A stretch of 45,394 nt of DNA from a virus (taxonomy: Duplodnaviria > Caudoviricetes), in the IMG/VR virus record IMGVR_UViG_3300043391_000337, positions 1-45,394 of that record. One strand, given 5' to 3'. The position numbers and the translations under genes are program-made. This document shows positions 6,086-43,319 of this stretch, one piece after another (within the stretch, counting starts at the first letter, position 1; each line of letters begins with the position of its first letter). The notes under the pieces are model-generated. The model was given only the letters and a program-made list of their open reading frames with translations, was not told the DNA's origin and ran no database searches.

Positions 6086-7264
6086 ATGGGTATAGCAGAT
6101 ATAATACAAAAGAACTTAGGCAATCTTACAGGCGGTGGTTTAGTAGGTATGGCAGGTGGTATTGCTGGTAGTTTATTTGATAAAGGCAAAAACAACATGG
6201 CACAAAATAATGCTGCCGCAAAGATATTAAACAAATCACCATTAGAAATAGCAAACGATACAAGTCCTGTTTCTCATATGCAATCCAATCCTTATGAATA
6301 TGGAACAGCATGGTATCCTGAAAATGTACAAAATTTAGGAACAGGTCATTACATTATATTTGATATATTAGAAACAGATACCGCTTATGGTCAAGTTTGG
6401 AATAGTATGAAAAAAGGTGGTAATGCAGTAGCTAAATCTTTAGGTAAGGATACTATTGCCGAAACTTATGCTGATCAAACTAGTAATTATAAAAATACTA
6501 GAAGTCAACAAGCAGCTCAAGCAAGAGTAACTCAACAGTCATCAGGTATTAATAGACAAACAAATCAAGCAAGTGGAATGTTTAATAGAATAGGAGTTGG
6601 GTCGAGACACACAAGAGTTTGCGACACATTAATATTATACACACCTGCAGGATTAAAAACAAGTTACAATGTATCACACGAAGGAACAGAAACAGGAATG
6701 TTAGGAGACATATTAGGTACAGATATATCATCTGGCGCAGATATAGTAGGTAGATTAAAAGAAGTTAGTACTAAATTAGGTACAGAAATTGCTGGTATGG
6801 CATTGAGTTTAGTCCCAGGCGCCGGTGATTTAAAAGGTGCATTATCAAAACTAACAGGTATGGCATTTAACCCAAATTTAGAAATGGTTTTCAAAGGTGT
6901 ACCAATGAGAGAATTTGATTATTCATTTGAATTTGCACCTAAAAATAAAAAAGAATTAGAAAGCGCACAAAAAATTATAAACAAATTTAAATATCATATG
7001 CACCCCGAAATGGGACCAAGTAATGATTTTATTGTGCCATCACAATTTCAAATAACTTATATGTATATGGAAAATAGAAACACATATATTCCTAAAATTA
7101 GTAAGTGTGTATTAAAATCTTTGGACTTGCAACATGGTGATGAAGGAGTATTCAGTACTTTTGCTGCTGATGCTTTTGGTGCTGCTCCTATTTACACTAA
7201 AATGGTATTAAAATTTGCTGAAACAGAAATTATGACTAAAGGAACTATAAGCCAAGGATTCTAA
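6086..7264 (+). CDS. gp48: baseplate tail tube cap gp48
   Basis: ILYTP, NPNLEMVFKGVPMREFDYSFEFAPKN, FKYHMHP, PSQFQITY, LKFAETEI. Confidence 0.88.
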   Translation: MGIADIIQKNLGNLTGGGLVGMAGGIAGSLFDKGKNNMAQNNAAAKILNKSPLEIANDTSPVSHMQSNPYEYGTAWYPENVQNLGTGHYIIFDILETDTAYGQVWNSMKKGGNAVAKSLGKDTIAETYADQTSNYKNTRSQQAAQARVTQQSSGINRQTNQASGMFNRIGVGSRHTRVCDTLILYTPAGLKTSYNVSHEGTETGMLGDILGTDISSGADIVGRLKEVSTKLGTEIAGMALSLVPGAGDLKGALSKLTGMAFNPNLEMVFKGVPMREFDYSFEFAPKNKKELESAQKIINKFKYHMHPEMGPSNDFIVPSQFQITYMYMENRNTYIPKISKCVLKSLDLQHGDEGVFSTFAADAFGAAPIYTKMVLKFAETEIMTKGTISQGF

Positions 7265-7265
7265 T

Positions 7266-7799
7266 ATGTATTTCTCTTATTTTCCAAAAGGCCTGTACGA
7301 TTTAAAAGGTGATGGTAACGAAAAATTAGTTACCAATCTAATGAAAAGAGTTAAGGTTAGATCAAAGATTTTAGATCAGGCAAGTCTATATGATTTATAT
7401 GATGTACCAGAAGGAGAAACTCCAGAGATCACATCATTAAAACATTTTGGCAGTACTTATTATCATTGGGTAATTTTAATGACAAATAACATTACAGATA
7501 GATTTTATGGATGGCCATTATCATCATACGAATTTGAACAATATGTAAACGATAAGTACGATAATCCAGATGCTATACATCATTATGAAATAGATCAAAC
7601 AAGTGGCAGTGTTAAGAATTTAGGCCCAAGTGATTATTCATACAAAATAGAAGTTAATAGTGATACACCTCTTGCAACATCAGTATCTAATAGAGAATAC
7701 GAACAAAGAATACAAGATCAAAAAAGACAAATCAAATTACTAAATCCAGCTTACTTAACTTTATTATTGGAAGAATTTGAAAATTTGATGGCAGGGTAA
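7266..7799 (+). CDS. gp53: baseplate wedge subunit gp53 (LysM-like)
   Basis: MYFSYFP, GETPE, YHWVILMTNNI, WPLS, IHHYE, KRQIKLL. Confidence 0.9.
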   Translation: MYFSYFPKGLYDLKGDGNEKLVTNLMKRVKVRSKILDQASLYDLYDVPEGETPEITSLKHFGSTYYHWVILMTNNITDRFYGWPLSSYEFEQYVNDKYDNPDAIHHYEIDQTSGSVKNLGPSDYSYKIEVNSDTPLATSVSNREYEQRIQDQKRQIKLLNPAYLTLLLEEFENLMAG

Positions 7800-7800
7800 A

Positions 7801-9297
7801 ATGAGCATATATGATACACTTGACGCCAGTTCAATAAAAAAACCTGGTGCATACTACCTATCTGATATCAGATTGGTCTCTTATAGAAGTAAAGACGGCG
7901 ATAGCGAACCTGATTCTATTGGTATTGAAACAATGGTTGTAGATTTAAACATCTATGAAAGTATATTCAATAAAACATTATCAGGTAATTTATTAATCGT
8001 AGATGCTAATAACATAATAGGTAAATTACCGTTAACAGGTAATGAACGATTAGAATTTAAATTCTTTACACCATCACTATCAAAAGGGTACGATTTCACA
8101 TCTAAGACAGGCAATCCAATGTACATTTACAAAATACAAAATCGTACAGATATTTCACCTAGAGCACAAACTTACCTATTACATTTTTGCAGTAAAGAAA
8201 TGATGACAAATGAATTAGTTGTAGTAAGTAATGCACAAACTGGACAATATTCAGATATGGTGGCTAACATAACAAGAAATGAAGATTTCTTGGCGTCAGT
8301 AAAAGATTTTCAATTTGAACCATCTTGGGGATTACATAAACACGTATTTCCTAGAATAAGACCTTTTGATGCTATTGATACATTGTCTTTACAAACACGA
8401 AGTACAAAATTTGAAGGCGCAGGTTATTACTTCTATGAAACATCATCAGGTTTTAATTTCAGATCATTAGAATCAATGATGGCAATAGAAGCCAATACGG
8501 CACGACCTGCCTTGGCAAGATTTAGACCTAAACCGGCCAATGTAAATCAAGGCGGTGATAAAGATATTAAAAACGAAATGCAAATTGCCATCAAGTATAG
8601 AATTGTAGATCAGTTTGATACATTAAAGAATTTAAGAAATGGTGTATTTGCATCTAAACTAATTACACATGACCAACTCAACAAAACATACGAAGAAACA
8701 GATTTTAGTTACCATGCTGAATATCAAAATTTATTTCATGTAGAAACAGGTAAAGACGGTGTAAGAACCGACAATCAAGGCATATTACCTTTTTATACAA
8801 GAGAAGGACAGACATTGTCCGACTATCCTGAATCCACATTATATCTATGGTCGCAAACATCAGATACACATTATTCAGGTGATACACCTTTATACAATCC
8901 TGATATGAAAGAGATATTACAAAAACGATTATCACAAAGACTGGCATTACATTCATTTAAATTAGAATTAACCGTACCGGGAATGACAGGGTTACAGGCC
9001 GGCGATATCATTAACTTTGATATGCCTTCTTATGAACCTGCAGGTGGTTCAGAACCATTAGATCACGACCCTTACCTATCAGGACGATATCTGGTTACGT
9101 CTATACGCCACCAATTAAATCGTAAACAAAACAAACACTTCATGGTCTTAGAGTGTATGAAAGACAGCGTTAAACGACCTTATCCTGAAGAATACATAGA
9201 TACATTTATTAATAAGGAAAAGGCACACGATGGAATAGTAGATATTTACGAAATAGATAAAATGGTTGCGGATTCGTCAAGTGGTCTTTTTAGTTAA
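7801..9297 (+). CDS. baseplate hub protein (gp27-like)
   Basis: IYESIF..TLSG, LPLTGNE, YYFYET..GFNFRS, SGRYLVTSIRH; lies between gp53 and gp5. Confidence 0.65.
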   Translation: MSIYDTLDASSIKKPGAYYLSDIRLVSYRSKDGDSEPDSIGIETMVVDLNIYESIFNKTLSGNLLIVDANNIIGKLPLTGNERLEFKFFTPSLSKGYDFTSKTGNPMYIYKIQNRTDISPRAQTYLLHFCSKEMMTNELVVVSNAQTGQYSDMVANITRNEDFLASVKDFQFEPSWGLHKHVFPRIRPFDAIDTLSLQTRSTKFEGAGYYFYETSSGFNFRSLESMMAIEANTARPALARFRPKPANVNQGGDKDIKNEMQIAIKYRIVDQFDTLKNLRNGVFASKLITHDQLNKTYEETDFSYHAEYQNLFHVETGKDGVRTDNQGILPFYTREGQTLSDYPESTLYLWSQTSDTHYSGDTPLYNPDMKEILQKRLSQRLALHSFKLELTVPGMTGLQAGDIINFDMPSYEPAGGSEPLDHDPYLSGRYLVTSIRHQLNRKQNKHFMVLECMKDSVKRPYPEEYIDTFINKEKAHDGIVDIYEIDKMVADSSSGLFS

Positions 9298-9448
9298 CTG
9301 AAAGAAACTCAGAGTCCGACCGCTCCGAGGATTTTTGAGACCGCAATTTTTTATAGCTATGTAGATAACGACTATTTGGCTGGCCGATATTACAGGTACC
9401 GAGAGAATGGCCTTCTAAATATTAGAGACAAACTAAGGTTACGAAACT

Positions 9449-9562
9449 ATGATATACAACATATTAAAGACACCATTAAGAACACTGCAAGGCATATTCT
9501 CACTAAGGGTATGTAAGTGTAAAGGGTGCAAATGTAAACCAGGTATATTAAGAAGAAAGTAA
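9449..9562 (+). CDS. small Cys/Lys-rich hypothetical protein (37 aa)
   Basis: MIYNILKTPLRTLQGIFSLRVCKCKGCKCKPGILRRK; preceded by CTAAATA (9415-9421) and AAGG. Confidence 0.4.
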   Translation: MIYNILKTPLRTLQGIFSLRVCKCKGCKCKPGILRRK

Positions 9563-9565
9563 ACT

Positions 9566-9685
9566 ATGAGCGGCCATGTAGATATATTTGTAGATAAAGT
9601 CATGCTAGCGCATGCCTGGCTCATGAATAATATAGAAATGGCAAGTATTTTGGTATTTACTGGTGCGGCCAGCTGGCCTGCGTAG
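9566..9685 (+). CDS. small hypothetical protein (39 aa)
   Basis: MSGHVDIFVDKVMLAHAWLMNNIEMASILVFTGAASWPA; starts 3 nt after the previous stop. Confidence 0.3.
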   Translation: MSGHVDIFVDKVMLAHAWLMNNIEMASILVFTGAASWPA

Positions 9686-9754
9686 AAAAAAGGAAATGAA
9701 TAAAAATGACGTATGTTGAAGTGTTATTATCAGGCCATATAACGAAAGGCCGAA

Positions 9755-10630
9755 ATGAATAACGATAATTATATGGGCCTAGGAGGTTTTCACTGGTTCA
9801 TCGGAGTTGTTGAGGATAGAAACGATCCTCTCAAAGTCGGCCGTTTAAAAGTAAGAATCATCGGAGCACACACATCCGATAAAACAATTCTGCCTACTGA
9901 AGATTTATTCTGGTCGTCTGTAATGTTACCAATTACGGCCAGTGGTATATCTGGTATTGGCCAGTCGGCGACCGGACTACTCGAAGGAAGTTGGGTGTTT
10001 GGTTTCTTTCGTGATGGTGAAAGAAGTCAAGATGCGGTTATATTGGGTAGTTTACCAGGAAGGCCAACACAGGGAGCAAATAGCTCACAGGGCTTTTTTG
10101 ATCCTAATGGAGTTTATCCTCGTTATATAAATGAACCAGATACCAATCGTCTGGCCGTTAACAATGGTGAGAAACCACATCCAAGTTCGGCCATAGATGC
10201 GGCCAATAGAATTACGGATATACAGGCCTATAACTCGGAATGGTCGCAACCAGCGAGCACCTATGCGGCCGTTTATCCTTTTAACCAAGTATACGAATCA
10301 GAGTCAGGCCATATAGTAGAGTTTGATGATACAGAAGGAGCGGAGAGAATACACATCCGCCATCGATCCGGTACTCGCTTTGAAATCACGGCCAACGGCG
10401 ACCAACTGGCCATTACCAAAGGCGACAACTATATAATCATAGATGGTAATAATAAGGTCTATATAGCAGGCTCATCCGATATCACAGTAAATGGAAACGC
10501 AAACATCAAAGCAGGTGGAGATGTAGGTGTGCTGGCCAGTAATATAGACATAACGGCCACAGGCAATATCAACATGGATGCAGGTGGTAACGTGGTAATC
10601 ACAGGCACACGAATTGATCTAAACCCTTAG
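9755..10630 (+). CDS. gp5: baseplate hub/spike protein gp5 (OB-fold plus beta-helix, no lysozyme domain)
   Basis: WFIGVVEDRNDPLKVGRLKVRI, GSWVFGFFRDG, YPFNQVYESESGH.VEFDDTEGAERI, short beta-helix repeats. Confidence 0.9.
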   Translation: MNNDNYMGLGGFHWFIGVVEDRNDPLKVGRLKVRIIGAHTSDKTILPTEDLFWSSVMLPITASGISGIGQSATGLLEGSWVFGFFRDGERSQDAVILGSLPGRPTQGANSSQGFFDPNGVYPRYINEPDTNRLAVNNGEKPHPSSAIDAANRITDIQAYNSEWSQPASTYAAVYPFNQVYESESGHIVEFDDTEGAERIHIRHRSGTRFEITANGDQLAITKGDNYIIIDGNNKVYIAGSSDITVNGNANIKAGGDVGVLASNIDITATGNINMDAGGNVVITGTRIDLNP

Positions 10631-10861
10631 TGATAAAGAGACGGCCAGACAGTACTGGAGAACTTTTGCTAATCTATAAAGACTCACCTATGGTTACTAC
10701 TATTAGAACAGGCCCTTATTCTAAAGTAAACCCTTATGTTATTCCTATAGGAAACCTCGGAGGTTCCAGGATCTGTTAAAAGATTGGTAGTATCTTTATA
10801 GGCGGAAAATTCCCTGGTGGATTTTACTTGTTCCAGGTTCGTTCATTCCATAAATAGGTTC

Positions 10862-11095
10862 ATGTATAAAATCATAAGTGTGATTTTATTATGTTTAACT
10901 TTGTTTTCGTCATCTTCTACATACTCTAAGACAGCAACTGGAACTATGATGGTTACAGCAACGGTACCTGTTAAGGTTGTACCTACTCATATATTCTTAC
11001 CTAATAATACTTCTATAATTAAAGACTTGCCAATTGGTACTAAGGTTACCACGGTTACAAATGGGCATATAACAACCATTACTTTAATATATTAA
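10862..11095 (+). CDS. small secreted protein (77 aa; start revised from 10817)
   Basis: CATAAATA at 10849-10856 then ATG; signal-peptide-like MYKIISVILLCLTLFSSSSTYS followed by beta-rich mature part. Confidence 0.55.
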   Translation: MYKIISVILLCLTLFSSSSTYSKTATGTMMVTATVPVKVVPTHIFLPNNTSIIKDLPIGTKVTTVTNGHITTITLIY

Positions 11096-11096
11096 C

Positions 11097-11125
11097 TTGA
11101 CATTGTTCCAGGTTTGATATATAAT
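11097..11125 (+). promoter_or_regulatory. perfect-consensus sigma70 promoter
   Basis: TTGACA-17 nt-TATAAT, followed by AAGGAG RBS and ATG at 11149. Confidence 0.85.
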
Positions 11126-11148
11126 GGTGGTCAGAAGGAGTATTAACT

Positions 11149-11349
11149 ATGGGTGTATCTAAAAACAATCCTGGTGTAAGACAGGAACAGAAGAAGAAGT
11201 TTTATAAAGGTGTGGAGTTAAGGCCTACTCTATATGTTGGTAGTGCAGTAAATAAAGGTAGATATCTAGCAGGTGCAATTAATGGTGAATTGATTTGTGA
11301 TGCAAATGACACACCTTTACAATTAGCAAAGATACCTTTAGATAAATAA
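11149..11349 (+). CDS. hypothetical protein (66 aa)
   Basis: Strong AAGGAG RBS directly after a consensus promoter. Confidence 0.7.
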   Translation: MGVSKNNPGVRQEQKKKFYKGVELRPTLYVGSAVNKGRYLAGAINGELICDANDTPLQLAKIPLDK

Positions 11350-11369
11350 TAGTATAAGTATTCAGTACA

Positions 11370-11477
11370 ATGATTCAATGGAATATAATTACTTGGTGTA
11401 TTATTATTAGTTTATTAATATGTATGATATTGTTTCCGTCGGAATCGTATCTACAAGCATTACTTCATGGCTATTAA
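11370..11477 (+). CDS. single-TM microprotein (35 aa)
   Basis: MIQWNIITWCIIISLLICMILFPSESYLQALLHGY; fills the gap and overlaps the iscA start. Confidence 0.45.
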   Translation: MIQWNIITWCIIISLLICMILFPSESYLQALLHGY

Positions 11478-11796
11478 CATCACAGACAAAGCAAAGGTTC
11501 AGTTAATTGAATTATTAACGAAGAACAATAAACCTTGTGTATTACTCCAAGCCAAAGGCGGTGGTTGTGCAGGTTTTAAATATGACTGGTCTTTTATAGA
11601 AGAAGATAAAGTGGACGAAAATGATTCGTTCATTGATCTGAGCAATGGTAAGTTCTTTATCATTGATAGTAATAGTGTACCTTTAATTGACGGTATGACC
11701 GTAGATTGGAAAGAAGAAATCTTTGGTTCCAATTTTGAATTAATTAATCCTAACGCAAAGGCTTCATGTGGTTGTGGAGAGTCTTTTGGTGTTTAA
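11467..11796 (+). CDS. iscA: A-type Fe-S cluster carrier (IscA/SufA/ErpA, HesB family)
   Basis: INITDKA, GGGCAGFKY, NPNAKASCGCGESF. Confidence 0.93.
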   Translation: MAINITDKAKVQLIELLTKNNKPCVLLQAKGGGCAGFKYDWSFIEEDKVDENDSFIDLSNGKFFIIDSNSVPLIDGMTVDWKEEIFGSNFELINPNAKASCGCGESFGV

Positions 11797-11989
11797 ACAA
11801 TATCTTTATATACTATTATTAATAGTGTTAGTGTTTATTTGTATAGGTTGTTCTAATGTTAAAATGGCCTGTACAATGACTAATGATAAAGCGTTAACAA
11901 AAGATGGTAAAGAGATATCACCTACTGTAACAGATAAAGCAAAAGACTGTGTAAACAATCCAACTGTAATTGTATTTAAAGAGTTTTAA
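11789..11989 (+). CDS. putative small lipoprotein (GTG start revised from 11768)
   Basis: Basic N-terminus, hydrophobic stretch, lipobox-like CIGC; two further Cys. Confidence 0.5.
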   Translation: MFKQYLYILLLIVLVFICIGCSNVKMACTMTNDKALTKDGKEISPTVTDKAKDCVNNPTVIVFKEF

Positions 11990-12201
11990 AAGAAGAAGTA
12001 TTTAATTAAACCTGATAACCAAGTTGCGGCCATAATAATGAATACTGAAGCGGCTGCATAATCTTTAATAGAAATAAATTTTAATATCCAACAAAGATTG
12101 CCTACAAATAAAAAAGAAGAACCTATTAACCAGTCTATCTGAAAAGATATAAAGATAGCCCCAACAAACATAAAAAAGGTAAACAACCATTTAATAGACA
12201 T
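11986..12201 (-). CDS. small multi-TM membrane protein
   Basis: 71 aa, three hydrophobic segments; similar layout to 18209-18436 (KW..T...VG). Confidence 0.6.
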   Translation of the reverse strand: MSIKWLFTFFMFVGAIFISFQIDWLIGSSFLFVGNLCWILKFISIKDYAAASVFIIMAATWLSGLIKYFFF

Positions 12202-12213
12202 GTACTATATAGT

Positions 12214-12783
12214 CTATGGATTGTTTGCCGACATAGGCACATCAAAAATAAAAGCAATACGTTCTGCTGGCCCTATATTTTCTGCCATGTGATTCTTCTT
12301 ATTATCAAACCAAAAGAATACTCCTGGTTCTACTACAATCACTTCTTTAGTATTATCGTCATCGCCATCGTCCCAAACTGTATAACGATATACACCTTTA
12401 ATAGATAAATGATAACGATCTTTAGTTAAATAATAATTACCTTGATCTATATGTTTACCTGTAATTTTACCTGCAGGTGTATTTAAAAAGGCACAACGGC
12501 CTACTTTTAATGATTTAGATGCTAACCATTGTTGAATGGCCGTATGGCGTCTTGTTGCATCTGTTGGTACACAGATTTCTGTATCACCTATAAATTCTTC
12601 TGGTTTAGAAATACCACCCATAACTAATTGAAGTACATCTGCTGTTACAAGTTTACTATGAGGGTCTTGACGATCAACACCTTTTAAGCGACTAGCATTA
12701 CCCCAATCATCTGAGTATTGTTCCAACTGTTCACGTATTTTAGATACGTCTATATTCTTTTCAATAATACGTATGTTCTTCAT
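12214..12783 (-). CDS. aspartyl/asparaginyl beta-hydroxylase-like 2OG-Fe(II) oxygenase
   Basis: HID (HxD) motif, RYHLSI, FWFDNKKNH, RIAFIFD. Confidence 0.8.
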   Translation of the reverse strand: MKNIRIIEKNIDVSKIREQLEQYSDDWGNASRLKGVDRQDPHSKLVTADVLQLVMGGISKPEEFIGDTEICVPTDATRRHTAIQQWLASKSLKVGRCAFLNTPAGKITGKHIDQGNYYLTKDRYHLSIKGVYRYTVWDDGDDDNTKEVIVVEPGVFFWFDNKKNHMAENIGPAERIAFIFDVPMSANNP

Positions 12784-12875
12784 TTACAAAACATATCTTT
12801 AATCATTAATATCCAAAGACCTATTATTGCAACTATACCTGCTAGAAAGAATGTATTTACTATAATTGCTATCAT
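12780..12875 (-). CDS. single-TM microprotein 4 (31 aa)
   Basis: MIAIIVNTFFLAGIVAIIGLWILMIKDMFCK; ATGA overlaps with both neighbours. Confidence 0.65.
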   Translation of the reverse strand: MIAIIVNTFFLAGIVAIIGLWILMIKDMFCK

Positions 12876-12949
12876 TTTGAAATATGATGTAAAATTATTA
12901 AAGCCGGTATTAATAATACTAATGGTATTAAAAAATTAAATGTCAACAT
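12872..12949 (-). CDS. single-TM microprotein 3 (25 aa)
   Basis: MLTFNFLIPLVLLIPALIILHHISK; TAA-T-ATG junction upstream, ATGA downstream. Confidence 0.6.
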   Translation of the reverse strand: MLTFNFLIPLVLLIPALIILHHISK

Positions 12950-12950
12950 A

Positions 12951-13019
12951 TTATTTCATTCCGTAGTACATGACTGCTCCTAGAACAATCAACGCCACAA
13001 TGATATAAAAAGTTACCAT
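12951..13019 (-). CDS. single-TM microprotein 2 (22 aa)
   Basis: MVTFYIIVALIVLGAVMYYGMK; TAA-T-ATG junctions on both sides. Confidence 0.6.
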   Translation of the reverse strand: MVTFYIIVALIVLGAVMYYGMK

Positions 13020-13020
13020 A

Positions 13021-13104
13021 TTAATTATCCAATACTCTATCTATAAACCAAAGTATAACACATACACCTATAATCAATAACACATAACCAAAAAAATATT
13101 CCAT
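13021..13104 (-). CDS. single-TM microprotein 1 (27 aa)
   Basis: MEYFFGYVLLIIGVCVILWFIDRVLDN; ATG abuts the nuclease stop (TAAATG). Confidence 0.62.
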   Translation of the reverse strand: MEYFFGYVLLIIGVCVILWFIDRVLDN

Positions 13105-13536
13105 TTAATTACACCAAGTAGTTTTGGCTTCGCCGTAGTATTCTCTAGCGTAACCATTTTTAATTAATAATGATCTTAAACTCTGGCCATCTATTATTAT
13201 ATCACCTAATACACGACCACCAAATTTATCCCAATTAGCAATAGCAACTTCTATCTTCTTAGCACTAGCAATTGATTTCTTTGTAAATTCTGTAGCAGCA
13301 AGACCTTTAGTGTTTTCAGATTCACATTTAGCACGGAATCCTTTTTCTGGTGTATCAACACCATAGACACGAATAGATAATTCTTTTTTAAGAGGTTCTG
13401 GTAAGAAATTTGCTTCGAATGCTACAGTATCACCATCTAATACTCTAGTTATTTTATAGTTGTAAATTTTCATTTCTACATCCTTCGCTAACGCCAAAGT
13501 AGGTAGAATCATTAATATTAATAATAATCTTTTCAT
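13105..13536 (-). CDS. secreted thermonuclease (SNase family)
   Basis: Signal peptide MKRLLLILMILPTLALA; RVLDGDT, IRVYGVDTPE, DKFGGRVLG, LIKNGYA. Confidence 0.9.
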   Translation of the reverse strand: MKRLLLILMILPTLALAKDVEMKIYNYKITRVLDGDTVAFEANFLPEPLKKELSIRVYGVDTPEKGFRAKCESENTKGLAATEFTKKSIASAKKIEVAIANWDKFGGRVLGDIIIDGQSLRSLLIKNGYAREYYGEAKTTWCN

Positions 13537-15939: not shown

Positions 15940-16410
15940 ATGACAAAAACAACTAAAATTAAATGGGTTATCGCCCATGAGCCTTTAAAGCTTTTTATAA
16001 GAGCTGCTAAAGATTTTCAAGATTTTGTTAATGCTGCTCAATCTGTTGAAAAGATTGAAGTAGAAGTTATGACATTATCAGAGTATAGTAACAAATATAA
16101 CAATGGCGTACAAGTTACTAAACACGATTTACTTGATCTTATGGAACAAGGTAAAATCGAAATGTCTCAAATGTACACAACTTGGTTAGCTGAGAAGTAT
16201 GACCATGATTTATTAGCATTAGAAATGCCATACATATTTAAAGATCACAAACATGCTGAAAGAGTATTAGAAGGTAAAGTTGGTGAAACTTTATTAGAAA
16301 AAATTACATCTTTCGGTAACGTTAGAGGTCTAGCGTTCACTTATTCAGGTGGATTTAGAAATATTGTAACTAATAAAAAAGAAAGCAATTTAGATACTTT
16401 AAAGAAGTAA
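15940..16410 (+). CDS. TRAP DctP-like substrate-binding protein, N-terminal half
   Basis: GKIEM, LEMPYIFKDHKHAERVLEG.VG, GGFRNIVTNK; no signal peptide. Confidence 0.8.
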   Translation: MTKTTKIKWVIAHEPLKLFIRAAKDFQDFVNAAQSVEKIEVEVMTLSEYSNKYNNGVQVTKHDLLDLMEQGKIEMSQMYTTWLAEKYDHDLLALEMPYIFKDHKHAERVLEGKVGETLLEKITSFGNVRGLAFTYSGGFRNIVTNKKESNLDTLKK

Positions 16411-16429
16411 TTTAAATTACTATTATAAA

Positions 16430-16924
16430 ATGAAATTAAGAGCAAATCGTAATCCAGTTGCGAAAGCAACTTTGAAAGCTCTGAAAGGTTCTGATAAAGA
16501 TATTCACGTTTGTGAAATCGAAGAACTTACAGATCATGTTGCTACCGGAAAATGTGATGGTGGCGAAAGTAACTATAGCAGAGTCTATCCTTTAAAACAA
16601 AATGAAGTGATAGAATCTGTTGTAGATACTGAACATAGTTTATTTCTTACATCAATGATTATGCGTGAGAATTTTTGGAAAACATTAAGTCCAGAAGTTC
16701 AAAAGGTAATCAAAGATGCTGCCATTAAAGCTGGTAGACGAGAAAGACAAACTACAATTGAAGATGGTGAAGAAGCTAAAGAGATGCTTATTAAAGAAGG
16801 TAAAACAATACACACTTTAACACCAGAAGAAAAACAAGATTTTATTGATAAAACTAAGGTGGTTTATGAGGAGTTTGAAAAAACTTTTACACCAGGTTTA
16901 ATAAACGATATAAAGAACGGTTAA
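16430..16924 (+). CDS. TRAP DctP-like substrate-binding protein, C-terminal half
   Basis: MKLR, GKCDGGES, TEHS, FWKTLSPEVQKVIKDAA, LTPEEK. Confidence 0.8.
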   Translation: MKLRANRNPVAKATLKALKGSDKDIHVCEIEELTDHVATGKCDGGESNYSRVYPLKQNEVIESVVDTEHSLFLTSMIMRENFWKTLSPEVQKVIKDAAIKAGRRERQTTIEDGEEAKEMLIKEGKTIHTLTPEEKQDFIDKTKVVYEEFEKTFTPGLINDIKNG

Positions 16925-16925
16925 T

Positions 16926-16943
16926 TATAAATAGGTATAAATA
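16926..16943 (+). promoter_or_regulatory. tandem late promoters
   Basis: TATAAATA at 16926-16933 and 16936-16943. Confidence 0.65.
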
Positions 16944-16979
16944 TGGTAACAATTACTATAAAAAAGAGGAGAGATTTAA

Positions 16980-18032
16980 ATGTCTAACAAAAAAACTTTA
17001 CGTTGGGTTATAGCACATCACCCAGTTTCATTATTTGAAAGAACAGCAAAATTGTTCAAACAAGAATTAGAAAAAGAGTGCCCAAATCAATTTAATTTGG
17101 AAATTTATACACCTGGAACTTATGATAATAAATTCAAAAACCATCCAGAATTTAAAATTGTACCACCAGATGTTAATGGTTTAGAAGAAAGACCTTCTTC
17201 TGTAAAATCACTTAATGGTGAAGAAGTACAATTAAAAAAACAAAAACTTTGGTCAGAAGCTAAAGGAAGATGGACGTCTTTTTTCAATGCTCTTAGAGAC
17301 GGAGATTTTGAAATCAGTCAAACACAAGTTGGTATCGTAGGTGGTTTCTTAGATAGAAATTATCACGCTATTGATTTGCCTTTCTTATTTAATGGCCACG
17401 ATCATGTATCTAAAGTATTAGATAACGAAATCGGCGATTATATGTCTGACAATTTAGCAAGAAAAACTGGAGTTAGAGGTTTAGCTTTTACATACTCTGG
17501 AGGTTATAGAGTAATTGGTGCTAAAAAAGGAATAACAGCTCTAAGCGATTTATCAGCATTAAAATTAGTAACTCACACTGCTCACAGTGATGAATTATTT
17601 AATAATGTTGGTGCTAAAACTCTTAGAAAAGATAAAGCAACTATTGAAGATGTTGCTGATCTTAATAAAGATGAAAACGGAGCAATTGAAACAACTTATT
17701 TAAGATTTGCTGGTAAAAACGTGTTAAAGACACAGCACAGTATGTTTACTACTACAATCTTAACAGGTGATAAATTCTGGAATACATTAACATCAGAACA
17801 ACAAGCAGCTTTCAAAAGAATTGCTAAAGTTGTTGCTAAAGAGGAACGTAAATGGTCTCTACAAGATTCGGCTGCTTACGAAGCTAATGCTCAAGCAAAT
17901 GGTGTTACTATTACAGAAATCAATAAATCTGATCTTGCAAAATTACAAGAATCAGCTAAGAAAGTTTATTCTAATTTAGATAACATTGGAATTGACAAAA
18001 AATTAGTTGACAGAATTATTGCTGCTGCTTAA
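16980..18032 (+). CDS. full-length DctP-like substrate-binding protein without signal peptide
   Basis: ALRDGDFEI, IDLPFLF, GLAFTYSGGYRVI, FWNTLTSEQQ; paralogue of the split pair (WVIAH.P, RGLAFTYSGG); GAGGAG RBS. Confidence 0.82.
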   Translation: MSNKKTLRWVIAHHPVSLFERTAKLFKQELEKECPNQFNLEIYTPGTYDNKFKNHPEFKIVPPDVNGLEERPSSVKSLNGEEVQLKKQKLWSEAKGRWTSFFNALRDGDFEISQTQVGIVGGFLDRNYHAIDLPFLFNGHDHVSKVLDNEIGDYMSDNLARKTGVRGLAFTYSGGYRVIGAKKGITALSDLSALKLVTHTAHSDELFNNVGAKTLRKDKATIEDVADLNKDENGAIETTYLRFAGKNVLKTQHSMFTTTILTGDKFWNTLTSEQQAAFKRIAKVVAKEERKWSLQDSAAYEANAQANGVTITEINKSDLAKLQESAKKVYSNLDNIGIDKKLVDRIIAAA

Positions 18033-18968: not shown

Positions 18969-19259
18969 ATGCCAGGAATTTGTAGGGTAGGATTAGACAG
19001 GCATATTGGGCATGCTTGTGTAAAAGTACCTTATCATCAAACACCTTATAAGACCGGTTCTGCAAATGTTTTTATAAATGGTGCAAAAGTAGTTAGAATT
19101 GGAGATATTTGTGCTTGTACAGATCCTGCTATCAGAGGAAGTGAAACTGTTTTTGTAAATGGTATAGGTGTACATAGAAAAGAAGATGCAACAGGCGGAC
19201 ATGGTTGTTGGGTGCCAAATAAGGCAGCTACAGGTTCAACAAACGTATTTGCAGGTTAA
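18969..19259 (+). CDS. PAAR spike-tip protein (gp5.4-like)
   Basis: GSANVFING..VRIGD, GSETVFVNG, GSTNVFAG; His/Cys metal ligands. Confidence 0.9.
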   Translation: MPGICRVGLDRHIGHACVKVPYHQTPYKTGSANVFINGAKVVRIGDICACTDPAIRGSETVFVNGIGVHRKEDATGGHGCWVPNKAATGSTNVFAG

Positions 19260-19260
19260 T

Positions 19261-19512
19261 ATGGCACAATTAGATTCATCAGGTTTAACATTTACAAGTC
19301 AACCAACAAAAGCTGAAACTGAAAGATTTGAATATGCAGCTTTTGGTTACTTTGATAATAACCCAGCGATAGTTGGTAATACATATCAAAGTCTTATTGG
19401 TATATATTATGATGATTTTGGAAATAAAACAGATGATAACTCTCAATACGATTATTTGTACATGTTATTAAATTATGTACAAAGTGGATATGTTACTGTT
19501 CAAAATCAATAA
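19261..19512 (+). CDS. hypothetical virion-associated protein (start revised from 19168)
   Basis: ATG 1 nt after the PAAR stop; Tyr/Asp-rich, ends YVQSGYV. Confidence 0.6.
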   Translation: MAQLDSSGLTFTSQPTKAETERFEYAAFGYFDNNPAIVGNTYQSLIGIYYDDFGNKTDDNSQYDYLYMLLNYVQSGYVTVQNQ

Positions 19513-19529
19513 TAAAGAATAAATAAAGT

Positions 19530-22265
19530 ATGACCATAGTCTATCGAAATACAAAAGGAGCCGCTCTTACTTACAATGAGATGGACGAGAATTTACGTGA
19601 TCTACGACAAGACACAACAATTGATAGAGTATTAGCAAATGGTAACACAACTACAAAAAGTTTAAATCTAGGTTCTTTAAATGCAACTACTATTACACTT
19701 AATGGTCAACCTTTAGCAGGATTAGGTTATACAGGATCAAGAGGTGATGCAGGTTATACAGGAAGTTTAGGTTACACAGGATCTACAGGCACTGGTTACA
19801 CAGGTTCAGCAGGCAGTTTAGGTTACACAGGTTCACAAGGTGATCAAGGACCGGCAGGTGGTTATACAGGTTCACAAGGTGATATCGGTTACACAGGCTC
19901 AGCATCAACTGTAGTTGGTTATACAGGAAGTTCAGGTTATGCCGGTTCACAAGGTGTAATTGGTTATACTGGATCAAAAGGCGATGAAGGTAATCAAGGC
20001 ATACAAGGGTTTACAGGAAGTTTAGGTTACACAGGTTCACAAGGCGTACAAGGTTATACAGGAAGTTTAGGTTACACAGGTTCACAAGGCGTACAAGGTT
20101 ATACAGGAAGTTTAGGTTACACAGGTTCACAAGGTTATACAGGAAGTTTAGGTTACACAGGTTCACAAGGCGTACAAGGTTATACAGGAAGTTTAGGTTA
20201 CACAGGTTCACAAGGTTATACAGGAAGTTTAGGTTACACAGGTTCACAAGGACCTCAAGGTGAACAAGGCGCAACTGGTTACATTGGTTCGCAAGGTACT
20301 GCAGGAGACAAATATAAAACAACATCACAAACTAGTTTAAATTTATCTTCTTATGCTTTAAATGATACTATATCTTTAACAACTTCTGAATTTTCTTTAA
20401 GTTTTACATCACAACAGACAGTTATAATTGCTGAAGCTCCATCATTAGGAAATCCATCACCAACAAATCATTTACATGCTCAAATTTTATCATTTGATAT
20501 TAGTAATGGTAATATGGTGGGTGTTGTTACAAACAACGGTAATGTACAAAATAGTATTTTAAGTTCTTGGATAGTTAACATAGATGGAGCCATTGGTGTA
20601 CAAGGTTATACAGGTTCGAGAGGTTATAATGGTTCACAAGGTTATACAGGATCAAAAGGTGATACAGGTTATGTTGGTTCACAAGGTATACAAGGAGATT
20701 TTGGTTACACAGGTTCTCAAGGTATAATAGGTTATACAGGCTCACAAGGTTATACTGGAAGTTTAGGTTATACCGGCTCACAAGGTATTCAAGGTGTACA
20801 AGGTTACACCGGATCAAAAGGTGATCAAGGTATTCAAGGCACAGCAGGATTTACAGGCAGTCAAGGAGTAGGTTATACAGGATCTGCTGGAGTTGGTTAC
20901 GTAGGTTCAAAAGGAGATTTGGGGTATACTGGTTCTGCTGGAACAAATGGTTACACAGGTTCAAAAGGTGATCAAGGTCCTGCAGGAGGTTATACAGGCT
21001 CTCAAGGAGAAGCGGGAAATACTTTTTTAACATATTCTAATAATACTTTTACATTATCAAGTACAGGTTCTCAAACAATTATTATAGGAATAGGTTTAGC
21101 ATATTCTGTAGGACAGAATATTATTCTTTCAGCGGATTCAAATAATATTCAATATGGAATGGTAACATCTTATAATGATGGTAATGGATTTTTCACATTT
21201 GATAAAATAAGTTATATTGGTACAGGAAGTTATGATAGTTGGACAATTAATTTAGCTGGACCTGCAGGAATAAATGGTTTTGCAGGCAGTAGAGGATATA
21301 CAGGATCATCTGGTGCTGGCTATACTGGTTCTGCCGGTTCAACAGGTTATGTAGGATCAAAAGGAGATTTAGGTTATTCAGGATCAAAAGGCGATCAAGG
21401 CACAACAGGTTACACTGGATCAAAAGGCGAACAAGGTATTTTGGGTTACACTGGCTCGGCTTCAACTGTAGTTGGTTACACAGGAAGTTTAGGTTACACA
21501 GGTTCATCTGGTTACACCGGTTCACAAGGAGATCAGGGTCCTAGAGGAGGAAACGGATTTACAGGCTCGTTAGGTTATACAGGTTCGAGAGGTTATAATG
21601 GTTCACAAGGTTATACAGGATCTGATGGTGCTGGTTATACAGGCAGTCAAGGTATTCAAGGATATCAAGGTAACATAGGTTACACAGGATCAACAGGATA
21701 TACCGGCTCTGCTTCAACAGTAATTGGTTATACAGGAAGTTTAGGTTACACAGGATCACAAGGCGCTGGATTTACAGGTTCAAGAGGAGAAACTGGATTT
21801 GTAGGTTCACAAGGTCCTGCAGGAGGTTATACAGGATCTAAAGGTGATACAGGTTACACCGGTTCAGGTGGAACAGCAAGTGGATTACAATCAAGAACAA
21901 CTGCAAGTGTTACTACAAGTAGTTTGCCTAATAATGGAGTTGTTACTGCTAATATAACTGGTTCTAAATCTTATATGTTATTAAAAGTTACAACAAATGT
22001 TGCTTCTTGGATTAGAATTTATACTGACGATTCATCAAGAACGGCAGATGTAAGTAGAAGTCAATATACAGATCCAACACCTGGTTCTGGAGTACTTGCA
22101 GAAGTTATAACTTCAGGAAGTCAAACAGTAATATTAACCCCCGCTGTATTGGGTTATAATAATGAAAATCCTGTAACAACAGATGTGCCTATCAGAGTAA
22201 CAAATTTAAGTGGTAGTGCATCTACAGTTACCGTAACATTGACATACATACAATTAGAGTCGTAA
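19530..22265 (+). CDS. collagen-like fibre protein 1 (GYTGS repeats)
   Basis: N-terminal [13 protein letters not shown] anchor motif, three Gly-X-Y blocks, two inserted beta-domains, C-terminal globular domain. Confidence 0.85.
20011..20250 (+). repeat. exact DNA tandem repeat within the collagen-like gene (45/36-bp units)
   Basis: Unit TACAGGAAGTTTAGGTTACACAGGTTCACAAGG(CGTACAAGG)TTA repeated about six times with identical synonymous positions. Confidence 0.85.
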
Positions 22266-22266
22266 G

Positions 22267-23913
22267 ATGCCTGCAATTACAAACGCAGATGTTAATCAAA
22301 CAATATTAGTTACTTTATATCTTAAAAGAGATTTGCATGAAAACGGCCAATCTTTATCGGAATATGTTAAAGGTATACAATCAAAAGAAAATTCTATTTT
22401 AACACACGAAGAATTTACTTATCAATTTGGTACAACTGAAGAAGATATTAAATTAGTAACAGATTATGTTACATCAAAAGGATTAACTATAGAAGATGAT
22501 TGTAGGTTAAAATCATCCGTTAAAGTATCAGGAACAATAGGTACGTTTAATGATATATTTTCAATAACACTACAAACTGCGGTTGATGGTGATAGAACTT
22601 ATACGACACATGAAGGAGATATTAATATTCCTACAGAAATATCTTCTGTAGTAGAAAGAGTTTTAGGTTTAGATAATAAAATAGTAGTAGCAAGACCATC
22701 AGCAATAAGATTTGTTGAAGAAGAATATGTACCACCTGAAAATGTTCCTCCAAGTGTTTACATAGGTGCTGTTACTCCTGTTGAAGTTGCAAATGCTTAT
22801 AATTTACCGGCCGGAGATGGTTACGGTGGTTGTATTGGAATTTATGAATTAACTTATTATGGTTATCAAACAGGTTGGAATCAAACTGATGTTAATAACT
22901 CTTTCAGTAGAATAGGAATTACTCCACCTACTATTGTAACGATTAATACTGACGGCGTAACAACATTAACTACAAGTGATGCTGAAAGTATGTTGGACAT
23001 TTATTGTGCTGGTGCGGTTGCGCCTAGAGCAAAGATTGCTTATTATAATGCTCCTAATTCTTTTCAGGGAGTTATAGATAATTTTTTAACAGTAGCAGCA
23101 GATACTACAAATAGTCCTAGTGTTATTAGTTGCAGTTGGGCTTTTGGAGATTATTTGCCAGGATCTTGGTTTGGTTCAGCTATGGCCGCTTGTTCTGCTT
23201 TAGGTATCACTGTATTAGTGGCTTCGGGAGATGCAGGTGCTCAAAATTTTAATATGTATTCTCCTTATGGAATAACTACTGATCTTAATGCTTGTATTTG
23301 TGGAGGAACTACTATCTATTTAAGTAATGATAAACAATCTTATTCACAAGAAATAGGATGGAGTGGTTCGGGTGGAGGTATTAGCAATGTTAATAATTTA
23401 CCATCTTATCAAATAGGTTGCAAATACACAACTAAAACTTTAGGAGGAATAACAGGAACTCCAACACAATTACCTAAGAGAGGTGTTCCTGACATAAGTG
23501 CTCCTTCAGATCCAGGTACAGGTTTTCAATTTTATATTAATGGAGGTTTAAGTCAATATGGTGGAACAAGTGCAGCTGCGCCTTGGTTAGCGGGCATGAT
23601 AGTAAGATTTAATGTACTTACAAGTAAAAGAATGGGACATGTAAATCAATTTTTTTATGCCAATCCTTCAACATATAGAGATACTGCTTTAGGAGATAAC
23701 GTTAGAGGGTATGCAAATGGTTATACTACTACAGCAGAGAGTTGGGATGCCGTTACTGGCTTAGGAAGTCCTTACGGACCTGGAATTTACACATTATTAA
23801 AGAAAGAAATGAAAATTGCATATCCCAAAGTAAATTATGGGTTTAGAAGTGCAAATAAACAAAGATATCCGAGATATACAACTGGTGTATCAGGAAGAAC
23901 CAATAATTCGTAA
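22267..23913 (+). CDS. sedolisin/kumamolisin-like serine-carboxyl peptidase (S53) with prodomain
   Basis: ESMLD (catalytic Glu/Asp), ISCSW, ASGDAG oxyanion Asp, GSGGGIS, RGVPDIS, GGTSAAAP (Ser), WDAVTGLGSP Ca site. Confidence 0.92.
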   Translation: MPAITNADVNQTILVTLYLKRDLHENGQSLSEYVKGIQSKENSILTHEEFTYQFGTTEEDIKLVTDYVTSKGLTIEDDCRLKSSVKVSGTIGTFNDIFSITLQTAVDGDRTYTTHEGDINIPTEISSVVERVLGLDNKIVVARPSAIRFVEEEYVPPENVPPSVYIGAVTPVEVANAYNLPAGDGYGGCIGIYELTYYGYQTGWNQTDVNNSFSRIGITPPTIVTINTDGVTTLTTSDAESMLDIYCAGAVAPRAKIAYYNAPNSFQGVIDNFLTVAADTTNSPSVISCSWAFGDYLPGSWFGSAMAACSALGITVLVASGDAGAQNFNMYSPYGITTDLNACICGGTTIYLSNDKQSYSQEIGWSGSGGGISNVNNLPSYQIGCKYTTKTLGGITGTPTQLPKRGVPDISAPSDPGTGFQFYINGGLSQYGGTSAAAPWLAGMIVRFNVLTSKRMGHVNQFFYANPSTYRDTALGDNVRGYANGYTTTAESWDAVTGLGSPYGPGIYTLLKKEMKIAYPKVNYGFRSANKQRYPRYTTGVSGRTNNS

Positions 23914-23930: not shown

Positions 23931-23938
23931 TATAAATA
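23931..23938 (+). promoter_or_regulatory. late promoter
   Basis: TATAAATA before gp25. Confidence 0.7.
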
Positions 23939-30313: not shown

Positions 30314-33300
30314 ATGCCAAGTCCAACAGACTTTAACCTTTCGCCTTATTTTGATGATTACGATCCTACAAAAAAATATCATAGGATTCTTTTCAGACCA
30401 GGATATGCAGTACAAGCAAGAGAGTTAACACAGTCTCAATCAATACTACAAAATCAAGTAGAAAGATTATCAGATCATCTTTTTGAAAAAGGTGCAATGG
30501 TTATTCCTGGTGAAATTGGATTTGATTTAAATTACTCTGCTGTAAAACTTACTTCTAAAACTTTTACTTCAATAACAGATTATGTTGGTTTAATATTAAC
30601 AGGTGTAACTTCAGGTGTGGAGGCTACTTGTGTTAATTCTATAGCAACTAATGGAACAGATCCTGATACTTTATATGTAAAATATAGTTCGACAGGAACA
30701 AACAATACTTCGGTTTCATTTACAAACGGTGAAACCATTAACGCTACAACATCAACTAATCCTACTATTTTAGCAACAGCAGTTGTTAATTCTACTGCAA
30801 TAGGTTCGGCGGCTAGTATTGCTAATGGTTCTTATTATATTAATGGTTTTCATATATCAGTAGTTGCTCAAACAGTTGTATTGGACAAATATTCAAACAC
30901 ACCAAGTTATAGAGTTGGTTTAGAAATTACAGAATCTTTTGTAACACCAAATGACGATCTTTCGTTAAATGATAATGCTCAAGGTTCCACAAACATAAAC
31001 GCACCAGGAGCTCATAGATTTAAAGTTGATTTAACATTGTCTAAAAGAGCTTTAACATCATCTGCTGATGCAAATTTTGTTGAATTATTAAGATTAAAAA
31101 ATGGTATTAGAGCAAATCAAGTTACTAGTACTGCTTACAGTGTTTTAGAATCTACTTTAGCAAGAAGAACTTATGATCAAGCTGGCGATTATACAGTAAA
31201 AGATTTTGATATAGATGTTAGAGAACATTTATTGGCTGGAAATAATAGAGGTATATATTCATCAATTGATGGTGGAGATACAACTAAGTTAGCGTTAGGA
31301 TTATCTCCGGGAAAAGCATACGTAAAAGGATATGAGATTGAAAAAATTGGTACTAATTATGTTGAAGTAGATAAAGCTAGAGATTACGATACAGAAAGCA
31401 ATTTTAGAACAAGATTTGATGTTCAAAACTATGTTAATGTTACAAACGTTTATGGTACACCAGATATTGGATATGTTTCCGGCGATACAGAAGCATTTAA
31501 GAATATAAACTTATTTGACACTGCAACAGCAGTCAGAGGAACTCAACAATCAACTACAGGTGCTAAAGTGCCTCAAATTGGCAGAGCTAAATCAAAAGGT
31601 TTTGAATTAAATAACGGTGTAGCGAGTAGTTTTATATTATCTAGTTCGAGTTTAACATCAGCTGTTTACAAACAATATTTATTTGATATTGAAATGTTTA
31701 CACATTTAAACGTAACAACTGCACCATCATTTACTGATGGAGAAAAAATTATAGGAGTAACTTCTGGTGCTTATGGTTATAAACAATCTATTACATCTAC
31801 TAAGTCAGCAACTATATCAGCAGTTACAAAAGCAAATCCAGGTGTTGTAACAGCAACTGCACACACGTTTAAAGAAGGACAACAAGTTACAATTTCAAGT
31901 GTTGGTGGTATGACACAATTAAACAGTAATGTTTACACTGTAAGAAATCCTGAAACAGATACTTTTGAATTATATGATGTTGATGGTTTAACTAAAATAG
32001 ATACTACAGGTTATACAACTTATACTTCAGGTGGTACAGCAATTCATGGTGTTATAGTTCTTAATAACGTTATTGGTACATTTTCAGCTGGAGAAACAAT
32101 TACAGGTGCAACATCCGCTGTAACAGGTGTTATACAAAGAAATGCTGTAGGATTTAATGGCGTACAATCGTTCAATTTTAATCAAGTTAAACAAATTGGT
32201 ATGTCAGGTTCTCCTACATTTACTGCCAATACATCAACTGATGCAAGTTTTGGAGATAATTATCAAATATATGGACAAATATCAATTGCAAATAATGGAA
32301 CAACTGTAACAGGATTCGGTTCTTTATTTAATACAGAATTAACAATAGGAGATTCTATTATATTTACTACAGATGCTGGAACTTCAATTACAAGAATTGT
32401 AGAATCTATACAGTCAAATACAAGTTTACAACTTTCTATTGCCGTGGGCGCTGGCGATGTATCTACAAAAACAACAGCTGTTAGACTTAGAAGTTTTTTA
32501 CAAGGAGGAAATAAAAATACTTCTATATTTAAATTACCTTATACTAGAATTAAAACACAAAAGACAGCTAAAAATTCAAATCTGTCAGATACAAATTTTT
32601 ATGTAAGAAGAAACTATACGGCAAATTTATCAAACGGTGCTGCTACAATAACAGCAGGAACAAACGAAATATTTACTGGTGCTGCTGAAAAAGATTTTAT
32701 TGTTTCTGTAATGACTACAAGTGGTTCTGCTGTTGCAGGTAACGTTTTAAGTATATCTGGCAATAATGGCAATGGTAACCCAATATTTGTATTGGGTGGT
32801 TCTCCAACAGGAAAAACATTAACATTAGATTTTGGTAGTGCTTATGGTACTGCTAAAATTAAAATACTTGCCACAGTTTCAAGAGGAGTTGCAAATTCTA
32901 AAACAAAAACATTAAATACTGGTTCTACAATTTCTGTTTCATCTCAATCAACTATTGAATCTGGTTTAATTGGTTTAGGGAAAGCAGACGTTTATCAAAT
33001 TAATTCAGTTTATATGTCTCCTGATTTTAGTACACCAGCTACTACAAGCCATACAAATATTACAAATAGATTTACTTTAGATACAGGACAAAGAGATAAT
33101 TTTTATGATATAGGAAGACTTAAAATAAATTCTGGCGCCTTAACGCCTACTGGCCGTTTATTAATTAATTTTAATTATTTTTCACATGGTTCAGGAGATT
33201 ATTTTGACGTAGATTCTTATTCAATAGATTACACAAGCATACCTTCTTATACTTCTGATACGTCAGGTGTTTCTTATGACCTTAGAGATTGTTTAGATTT

Positions 33301-41493: not shown

Positions 41494-41521
41494 TTTAAAA
41501 AAATTGTTATAAAGTTATAAT

Positions 41522-41563
41522 TATTTATAAATATACTATAACATAATGTAACTGTATTGTCAA
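41522..41563. promoter_or_regulatory. palindromic bidirectional late promoter plus minus-strand sigma70 promoter
   Basis: TATTTATAAATA at 41522-41533; minus-strand TTGACA (41563-41558)-17 nt-TATAGT (41540-41535). Confidence 0.72.
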
Positions 41564-41590
41564 TCAAATAGAATTAAATGTAAATTATAG

Positions 41591-43243: not shown

Positions 43244-43277
43244 TTAAAAAAAATAATTACATGAAAGATAAAACTTT

Positions 43278-43285
43278 TATAAATA
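43278..43285 (+). promoter_or_regulatory. late promoter
   Basis: TATAAATA before the ATG at 43320. Confidence 0.7.
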
Positions 43286-43319
43286 ATAACAAGAATAACA
43301 AATTAATTAGAGAGAATTA

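Follow-up and report, generated by a model that had tools for sequence, protein, structure and literature searches.

A selected GGCC-rich tract over gp5 in a clade of T4-like phages adjoins a conserved single-copy box, a candidate packaging start site

The baseplate gene gp5 of a T4-like phage lies within a dense island of GGCC sites that is genuine, selected and clade-wide, and the island ends at a conserved box that is newly recognised here. It forms a double-strand-symmetric, one-sided tract of 1.2-1.5 kb that is under selection and directly adjoins this single-copy box. We tentatively propose that island and box together form a single-copy element with one direction, in which the island makes up the upstream arm; this may be a pac-like site at which the packaging enzyme would load and start.

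The window, which is the whole stretch of 45,394 nt (45.4 kb) that was analysed, represents part of a T4-like phage genome, from gp32 through the tail-fibre region, and has 32.5% G+C. Its closest cultured relative is Pelagibacter phage Mosig (47% by gp5, 38% by the upstream tail gene). The runs holding at least half of the window's words are mostly labelled freshwater, and we infer a freshwater SAR11 host, helped by the lack of curli genes after gp32, a trait that the available text of PMC7029224 reports for Ca. Fonsibacter phages. The features of the island and its surroundings are as follows.

7801..9297, plus strand: tail protein gene (PHROG 350) with a mild G/C shift (z = 4.8), the upstream taper of the shift.
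9382..10714, no strand: GGCC tract, 24 sites at irregular intervals (8-163 nt) without helical phase; G+C 42%, compared with 32% in the window.
9449..9562, plus strand: small ORF of 37 aa, basic, with a CKC motif and a late-promoter-like TAAATA ahead of it at ~9416.
9566..9685, plus strand: small ORF of 39 aa, overlapping the 20-nt block and three GGCC sites.
9593..9730, plus strand: conserved upstream boxes, found in GGCC-rich and GGCC-free relatives alike.
9593, plus strand: the 20-nt block, present once or twice more in relatives.
9667, plus strand: conserved upstream box, the 12-bp palindrome GGCCAGCTGGCC.
9679 and 9707, plus strand: conserved upstream boxes of GCGTA type.
9721, plus strand: conserved upstream box GTGTTATTAT.
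9755..10630, plus strand: gp5, baseplate hub/spike of 291 aa with an OB domain and a beta-helix (Pfam Gp5_OB, PHROG 430), holding 15 GGCC.
10643..10681, plus strand: conserved core, with GGCC at 10643 (-27), ACTG at 10654 (-16) and the box TAATCTATAAAG at 10670-10681.
10807..10845, plus strand: degenerate early (sigma-70-type) promoter block, where G+C and GGCC drop to background.
11097..11125, plus strand: consensus sigma-70 promoter (12/12), directed away from the island into a variable region.

With a GC3 of 0.377 (z = 11.6), gp5 ranks top of the 28 ORFs tested in the window; its product shows no lysozyme match. The first-pass annotation had spoken of a gp5 leader, and although its GGCC sites are there (seven), the stretch is not empty and holds the two small ORFs at 9449-9562 and 9566-9685, the former matched by a similar ORF in aligned relatives and kept at ~60% gp5 identity. 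Downstream, the early-promoter block copies at 10807-10845 and 11097-11125 flank a 92-aa ORF (10817-11095), and contigs of other runs join ~10781-10798 directly to 11097, which suggests a one-gene cassette gained or lost between the promoter copies. The variable region carries an IscA/HesB-type iron-sulphur assembly gene (11467-11796; best identity 35-47% among 401 sampled bacterial genomes). DctP-type (TRAP) substrate-binding genes occupy 15940-18032, one of them split (15940-16410, 16430-16924) and followed by a full-length copy (16980-18032), and a Kumamolisin-like protease with pro-domain and subtilase (22267-23913) lies in the baseplate module between a collagen-like fibre gene and gp25. 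Scanning host genomes with the DctP-like gene returned nothing, the gp5 scan returned two contigs in metagenome bins, and no SAR11-like host was present among five small genomes sampled from the 401.

Recounting gave 72 GGCC in the window, 24 of them within 9382-10714 (7 before gp5, 15 within it and 2 after it), and one in the 6-kb gene at 30314-36379, in agreement with the counts made earlier by hand (about 24 in about 1.35 kb, 15 in gp5, one in the 6-kb gene). The remaining window predicts 1.46 GGCC for the region, and dinucleotide shuffling of the region itself predicts 3.7 +/- 1.7 (maximum 11 in 3,000 shuffles). When the 72 sites are placed at random, no 1,337-nt window receives more than 14 (20,000 trials). 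Within gp5 the excess withstands control for both GC content and codon usage, the check that the first-pass annotation had set: shuffling the gene's own synonymous codons yields 2.9 +/- 1.4 sites (maximum 9 in 10,000 shuffles) versus the 15 seen, and genome codon usage yields 0.43. As described earlier, the sites arise from particular codon pairs, ten of the type NNG GCC, four GGC CNN and one AGG CCA.

The motif is exactly GGCC. Its flanks lean slightly to YGGCCR (56% of 733 island sites vs 44% of 607 outside), a lean only, and we reject the longer motif. GGCC words with one mismatch show no enrichment once the genome-wide bias is removed, and enrichment does not extend to CCGG, GCGC or CGCG. 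Spacing is irregular (CV 0.84) with no 10.5-bp phase, and among direct repeats in 9100-11500 the largest family with more than two copies consists of three 10-mers, with no regular 12-nt iterons. In the window and in the related records G001-G004 the island is the unique best GGCC cluster (19-26 sites per 1.5 kb, next best 6-8); in Mosig it is weakly the best window (7 vs 5), and likewise in G005 (6 vs 5, gp5 being cut off). An assembly artefact is rejected: a contig of one run (X1, possibly the window's own source) spans 6934-13110 without differences, and relatives carry the island too. The RNA runs X16-X19 contributed only short, dispersed contigs. Other palindromes behave differently in these phages. 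CGCG is missing from the window (0, ~10 expected) and TCGA is halved; Mosig is without CGCG and ACGT and nearly without GATC, and HTVC008M is nearly without TCGA, a strong avoidance even though restriction systems are reportedly rare in SAR11. GATC is dense (up to 19 per kb) at 19001-22000 and 41001-45394, in collagen-like repeat genes, probably as a by-product of repeated codons.

Beneath the GGCC sites lies a broader G/C shift, and the two can be separated. gp5 is the top GC3 outlier in both Mosig (1/136) and HTVC008M (1/136), and the latter gene has zero GGCC and yet a z of 9.1. The shift persists when GGCC codons are masked (masked GC3 0.295 vs 0.151). A codon-choice model finds it strand-symmetric (AA~TT, CC~GG) in each of four gp5 groups, with AA/TT steps the most depleted, and finds no shift in 11 outgroup genes. 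No G-over-C asymmetry, as an R-loop would favour, was found. Such a strand-symmetric shift fits a duplex-binding protein and not an RNA or an R-loop. A role of the island as RNA is not supported: Rfam gave no match at E <= 1 in 8800-11500, and sense-strand folding (z -2.3 to +1.8 in 11 gp5, vs -2.1 to -0.2 in 7 control genes) showed no signal beyond the controls. Gene 5 of T4 itself has no G/C shift (z -1.5) and one GGCC. Recent import of gp5 from a GC-rich donor, which the first-pass annotation had named as the outcome that would overturn its reading, is rejected, as the shift is clade-wide and extends over the flanking DNA.

GGCC itself is switched on and off. Among 63 Mosig-type gp5 genes, 30 carry at least 8 GGCC and 25 carry 0-2, with 7 changes of state on a quick tree and at least 4 forced by well-supported branches. 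The GGCC-rich genes hold 372 sites vs 128 expected (flanking ORFs 127 vs 110), and the GGCC-poor genes 11 vs 53 (flanks 46 vs 69). Among close marine relatives GGCC toggles and the strand-symmetric shift and the box are retained. Mosig and HTVC008M differ in GGCC state and share the same recorded host strain, which speaks against a purely host-set GGCC rule. A switch to another word in the GGCC-free relatives (AGGCA, CANAG, CGCC, CAGCC, CAACG, AGTTG) was considered and rejected, the hints coming from single genes with p of ~1e-3 to 3e-6 before correction for thousands of words and being mostly remnants of lost GGCC or chance. Primase-type single-strand words were rejected as well; near-miss 4-mers first looked enriched and vanished after correction for genome bias, and residual trinucleotide scores disagree from group to group.

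At least 5 GGCC are found in 100 of 123 unique related gp5 genes (from the window, 79 virus-collection loci and, after removal of partial matches and duplicates, 58 of 80 metagenome loci), at shifting positions; in the virus-collection set (the window and the 79 loci) the 47 genes with at least 5 sites spread them over 86 distinct aligned positions. The sites nevertheless resist silent change. Across 39 disjoint pairs, fourfold third positions within GGCC differ in 13% vs 31% of other G/C-ending fourfold sites. In 24 pairs with flanks the figures for gp5 are 17% within GGCC vs 34% for other G/C (OR 0.41) and for neighbouring genes 27% vs 30% (OR 0.89, p 0.64), each pair in both tests being counted both ways. 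Transitions inside island GGCC are the most suppressed (0.052 vs 0.172; transversions 0.121 vs 0.168). Related loci are not independent, and pooled p-values overstate certainty throughout. This turnover of sites, together with silent-site conservation confined to the island, supports the view, put forward in the first-pass annotation, that selection at the gp5 GGCC sites acts on the DNA and not on the protein.

The same data bear on a neutral footprint, in which a local mutation or gene-conversion bias would lift G+C and GGCC would accumulate wherever it is not purged. The G/C shift without GGCC in HTVC008M and after masking is what such a bias would leave, and silent A/T sites do diverge faster in gp5 (27%) than elsewhere (13%). 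Against it, GGCC stands five-fold above the expectation from gp5's own codons with no enrichment of CCGG, GCGC or CGCG, site conservation is restricted to the island, lost sites turn into many words, transversions included, and one-step precursors of GGCC are not depleted. Silent divergence of gp5 falls below that of its neighbours in just 2 of 11 pairs. We consider a neutral origin very improbable.

The family consensus of the box behind gp5 is TAAWCTATAAATGYAATAA, preceded by ACTG at -16 and, in many copies, by GGCC near -28; read in order, the extended core consists of GGCC (-25 to -34, often present), a run of C or G, AAACTG at ~-16 and then the box. The window copy keeps the first 11 letters of the consensus, its tail having diverged, and it is the window's best site at 10670 (22.1 bits, next 8.6) with a matrix trained leaving out the window's closest relatives. 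One best copy per record was found in the window, Mosig, HTVC008M, Melnitz, G001 and G002, and 40 kb of T4 scanned with the same matrix gave nothing above 8.2 bits. The copy of the Mosig record lies at ~96,800 and that of HTVC008M at 23,933. The box sits 27-111 nt past the gp5 stop in flank alignments. Of 135 loci with sufficient sequence downstream, 107 have it behind gp5 by a loose pattern, and its presence goes with the G/C shift (Fisher p 2e-9, the related loci not being independent); it is absent from cyanophage-like outgroups and from the sister loci L040 and L042, which are without the island. Scanning the collection with a 20-letter consensus gave at least 120 loci, of an estimated ~200. 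Of the 112 matches with at least 250 nt upstream, 106 lie directly behind gp5 on the same strand, and four exceptions with full flanks follow other genes, in two cases DNA polymerase, and keep the same extended context. The second scan gave 201 unique matches, 66 behind gp5, 46 elsewhere (chance matches included) and 89 too short for assignment. A nucleotide search of cultured phages recovered the box from Mosig and four Melnitz isolates only, with marginal E-values. We found no description of island or box in the literature searched, which was largely open-access text.

The box contains a sequence resembling a late promoter, and one may ask whether the tract is a regulatory or structural zone, whose G/C-rich duplex would keep an A/T-binding host nucleoid protein or cryptic transcription off a special late promoter, with a lineage-specific regulator binding GGCC. 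The box holds TATAAAT, a core used for calling late promoters in Melnitz (PMC9004378, available text), conserved promoter-like boxes lie on both sides of gp5, and AA/TT are the steps most depleted. Ordinary late promoters of these phages, however, read TATAAATA and share no flanks, whereas the box has the core TATAAATG in the family consensus and TATAAAG in the window, fixed flanks (~-30 to +20), a final G, a single copy per genome and varying downstream genes. A regulatory or structural zone seems unlikely to us.

The tract follows the box when the box lies away from gp5. In Melnitz the box (74,309) precedes the start of gp5 (76,363) by 2 kb; the genome's GGCC-richest window (7, mean 1.0) and the gene ranking first for GC3 (1/148) both lie directly upstream of the box, and gp5 is unremarkable (2 GGCC, z 2.5). 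For 22 full elements away from gp5, GGCC is the top 4-mer upstream of the box, with 77 sites in the upstream kilobase vs 21 downstream and higher counts upstream in 20 of 22. In 23 loci, excluding the core and sites adjacent to -35 boxes leaves 76 upstream vs 28 downstream within 1.5 kb; 28 of 104 upstream sites at non-gp5 loci lie in the core or beside promoter -35 boxes. The excess away from gp5 is about three-fold. The non-gp5 loci form 9 clusters; 7 are informative and 6 of those agree (p 0.125), and the G+C difference is small (0.409 vs 0.386). The 95%-complete G414 shows no GGCC excess by the box (3 sites, mean 1.44), and in G415 the box-side window ties for best. The link between tract and box away from gp5 is good, weaker than over gp5. 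Three tandem antisense consensus promoters occur 1.2-1.4 kb before the box at ~16,500-16,750 of locus L083 (Melnitz 72.9-73.1 kb); beside them is the small gene Melnitz_142, relatives of which occur close to the box at several loci.

These positions matter for an interpretation as a replication origin, the counterpart of T4 oriE, in which promoter activity would originate in the A/T-rich box or run across it, and a replication protein would bind the GGCC repeats as iterons. The first-pass annotation had pointed to gene 5 and oriE. In the window clade the tract does overlap gene 5, where the T4 record puts oriE with a primer antisense to the gene; T4 gene 5, on the other hand, is unshifted and has no box, and the signal follows the box away from gp5. 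The element is at gene 5 in the window and most loci, and elsewhere in Melnitz, G414, G415 and the loci where DNA polymerase precedes the box. A strand switch is found close to oriE, which contains iterons and depends on an early promoter (PMC3016281, available text); the window switches strand at 6040/6086. At 23 non-gp5 loci sigma-70 promoters number 45 sense and 11 antisense upstream of the box vs 11 and 0 downstream, the submotif of GGCC, C run and AAACTG is repeated downstream in some loci, and in L091 an 18-nt unit with GGCC is repeated 3.9 times in tandem just downstream of the box (1258-1327). A perfect sigma-70 promoter lies antisense in HTVC008M gp5 (L084 ~23571, minus strand), with the geometry of T4 oriE. 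After alignment a conserved antisense promoter was rejected, the perfect copy being missing at the aligned position in relatives, and no antisense consensus promoter lies within the window gp5. In none of eight genomes or contigs does fourfold-site skew switch at gp5, a test of low power with its 10-kb bins, and the irregular unphased spacing, the missing G-over-C asymmetry and the lack of any enrichment of primase-type words likewise argue against an origin. We regard an origin as a serious but doubtful possibility.

Methylation gating was the other idea of the first-pass annotation: a cytosine methyltransferase of phage or host would modify GGCC, and the methylation state of the sites would gate the element, as Dam sites gate P1 pac, where seven clustered methylated sites mark the cut (10.1101/2021.05.08.442635, available text). 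In the window and G001-G004 a methylatable palindrome is indeed packed into one dense cluster within coding sequence, as in the P1 arrangement. GGCC is also the sole C/G palindrome over-represented in the background genes of the island phages (112 vs 74), and transitions are the changes most suppressed within its sites. Melnitz encodes a C5 methyltransferase, a candidate enzyme with no homologue in ten other records tested. The search for a GGCC methyltransferase, which the first-pass annotation had suggested, found zero PF00145 or PF01555 matches in complete Mosig and HTVC008M and no PF00145 match in ten partial records (G001-G007, G009-G011), the genomes of strong-island phages being partial only. 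Two methyltransferases of bin G008 lie on other contigs than the phage locus and are not linked to it. Marine myoviruses with RGCY m4C are described in the available part of 10.1101/2021.05.08.442635, but AGCT, AGCC and GGCT, which RGCY covers, are not enriched, and Pelagibacter methylomes, as far as PMC9516812 and PMC12570018 describe them, have GANTC-type motifs. We consider a methylation gate distinctly unlikely.

The other part of the earlier interpretation, a protein-bound cis element, fares better, and we think that box and tract are likely a protein-loading signal, given a selected, duplex-symmetric tract beside a conserved box. In the packaging reading that we tentatively favour, a phage protein preferring G/C-rich double-stranded DNA would coat the tract, and GGCC would be the best short site of that protein in some lineages, while lineages that purge GGCC may keep the function through general G/C richness. 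The leading candidate for the coating protein would be the small terminase gp16. The late-promoter-like box might position the first cut, possibly via the late transcription machinery; T4 packaging is coupled to late transcription. Single copy, direction, free position, duplex symmetry, the GC preference of gp16, a flat gene 16 and the late-promoter-like core favour packaging. T4 gp16 is reported to prefer GC-rich DNA (PMC10893049, available text). Gene 16 of Mosig, HTVC008M, Melnitz and G414 has GC3 z of -1.7 to 1.4, with 29-36% G+C in its last 100 nt; T4 gene 16 is mildly G/C-shifted (z 2.4), the contrast in gene 16 being indirect and resting on this one T4 value. Gene 16 lies outside the window. 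No candidate for the tract-reading protein emerged from gene content (island phages vs HTVC008M, a Pfam scan of 65 of ~200 Mosig proteins, and shared genes).

Several observations count against packaging. Contig ends in 80 loci rise mildly within 500 nt of the box on both sides, as assembly breaks would give, and a sharp pile-up at the box is rejected. Described pac sites are much shorter than the 1.2-1.5 kb tract. The effect away from gp5 is weak, GGCC is dispensable, as the 25 of 63 Mosig-type gp5 with 0-2 sites indicate, and the window box is diverged and does not keep the late-promoter core. The prevailing view is that T4-like genomes are permuted and lack a single pac site (PMC3896407, available text), and Melnitz is described as circularly permuted from CheckV (PMC9004378). 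With still more reserve, we suggest that SAR11/OM43-type T4-like phages could have replaced the diffuse, gene-16-linked packaging start of T4 by a portable late-promoter-like box and a kilobase of G/C-rich loading tract overprinted on whichever genes precede it, and that GGCC toggling might serve lineage-specific self-recognition in co-infection.

Defined start sites of packaging or replication in T4-like phages are unsettled even for T4, and we found nothing in print for the SAR11-infecting relatives; if true, the pac-like reading would give T4-like phages such a site. SAR11 are among the most abundant cells in water, and the element marks one place per genome in three cultured phages (Mosig, HTVC008M and Melnitz) that differ in GGCC state and box position. 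The element further provides a clear example of a DNA signal that reshapes codon use across a whole gene and is gained or purged between close relatives.

Among known systems, T4 oriE, which by the T4 record and the available text of PMC3016281 comprises gene 5, an antisense early promoter, repEA/repEB and 12-nt iterons, shares with the element the overlap with gene 5 in the window clade and the nearness to a transcription strand switch. Unlike oriE, the island has neither regular 12-nt iterons nor a conserved antisense promoter, its G/C shift, GGCC excess and box are absent at T4 gene 5, and the element can sit off gene 5. The T4 late promoter TATAAATA (PMC2984593, available text) is matched by the TATAAA(T) of the box on the late-gene strand, whereas the box ends in G, is conserved over its flanks and single in copy, and reads TATAAAG in the window. 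With P1 pac the island shares a single cluster per genome, made of a 4-bp palindrome and embedded in coding sequence; GGCC is not the Dam site, the tract is far longer, and no cognate methyltransferase was found in Mosig or HTVC008M. The P1 cluster lies in the terminase gene pacA, and that of the window over gp5 instead. From a T4-type pac the element differs by its tract of 1.2-1.5 kb, its 4-bp motif, its end box, its distance of ~60 kb from gene 16 in Mosig and a gene 16 without G/C shift in the four box-bearing genomes. It resembles a T4-type pac in belonging to a T4-like phage, in the gp16/gp17 homologues of the complete relatives and in being a G/C-rich duplex overprinted on a coding gene.
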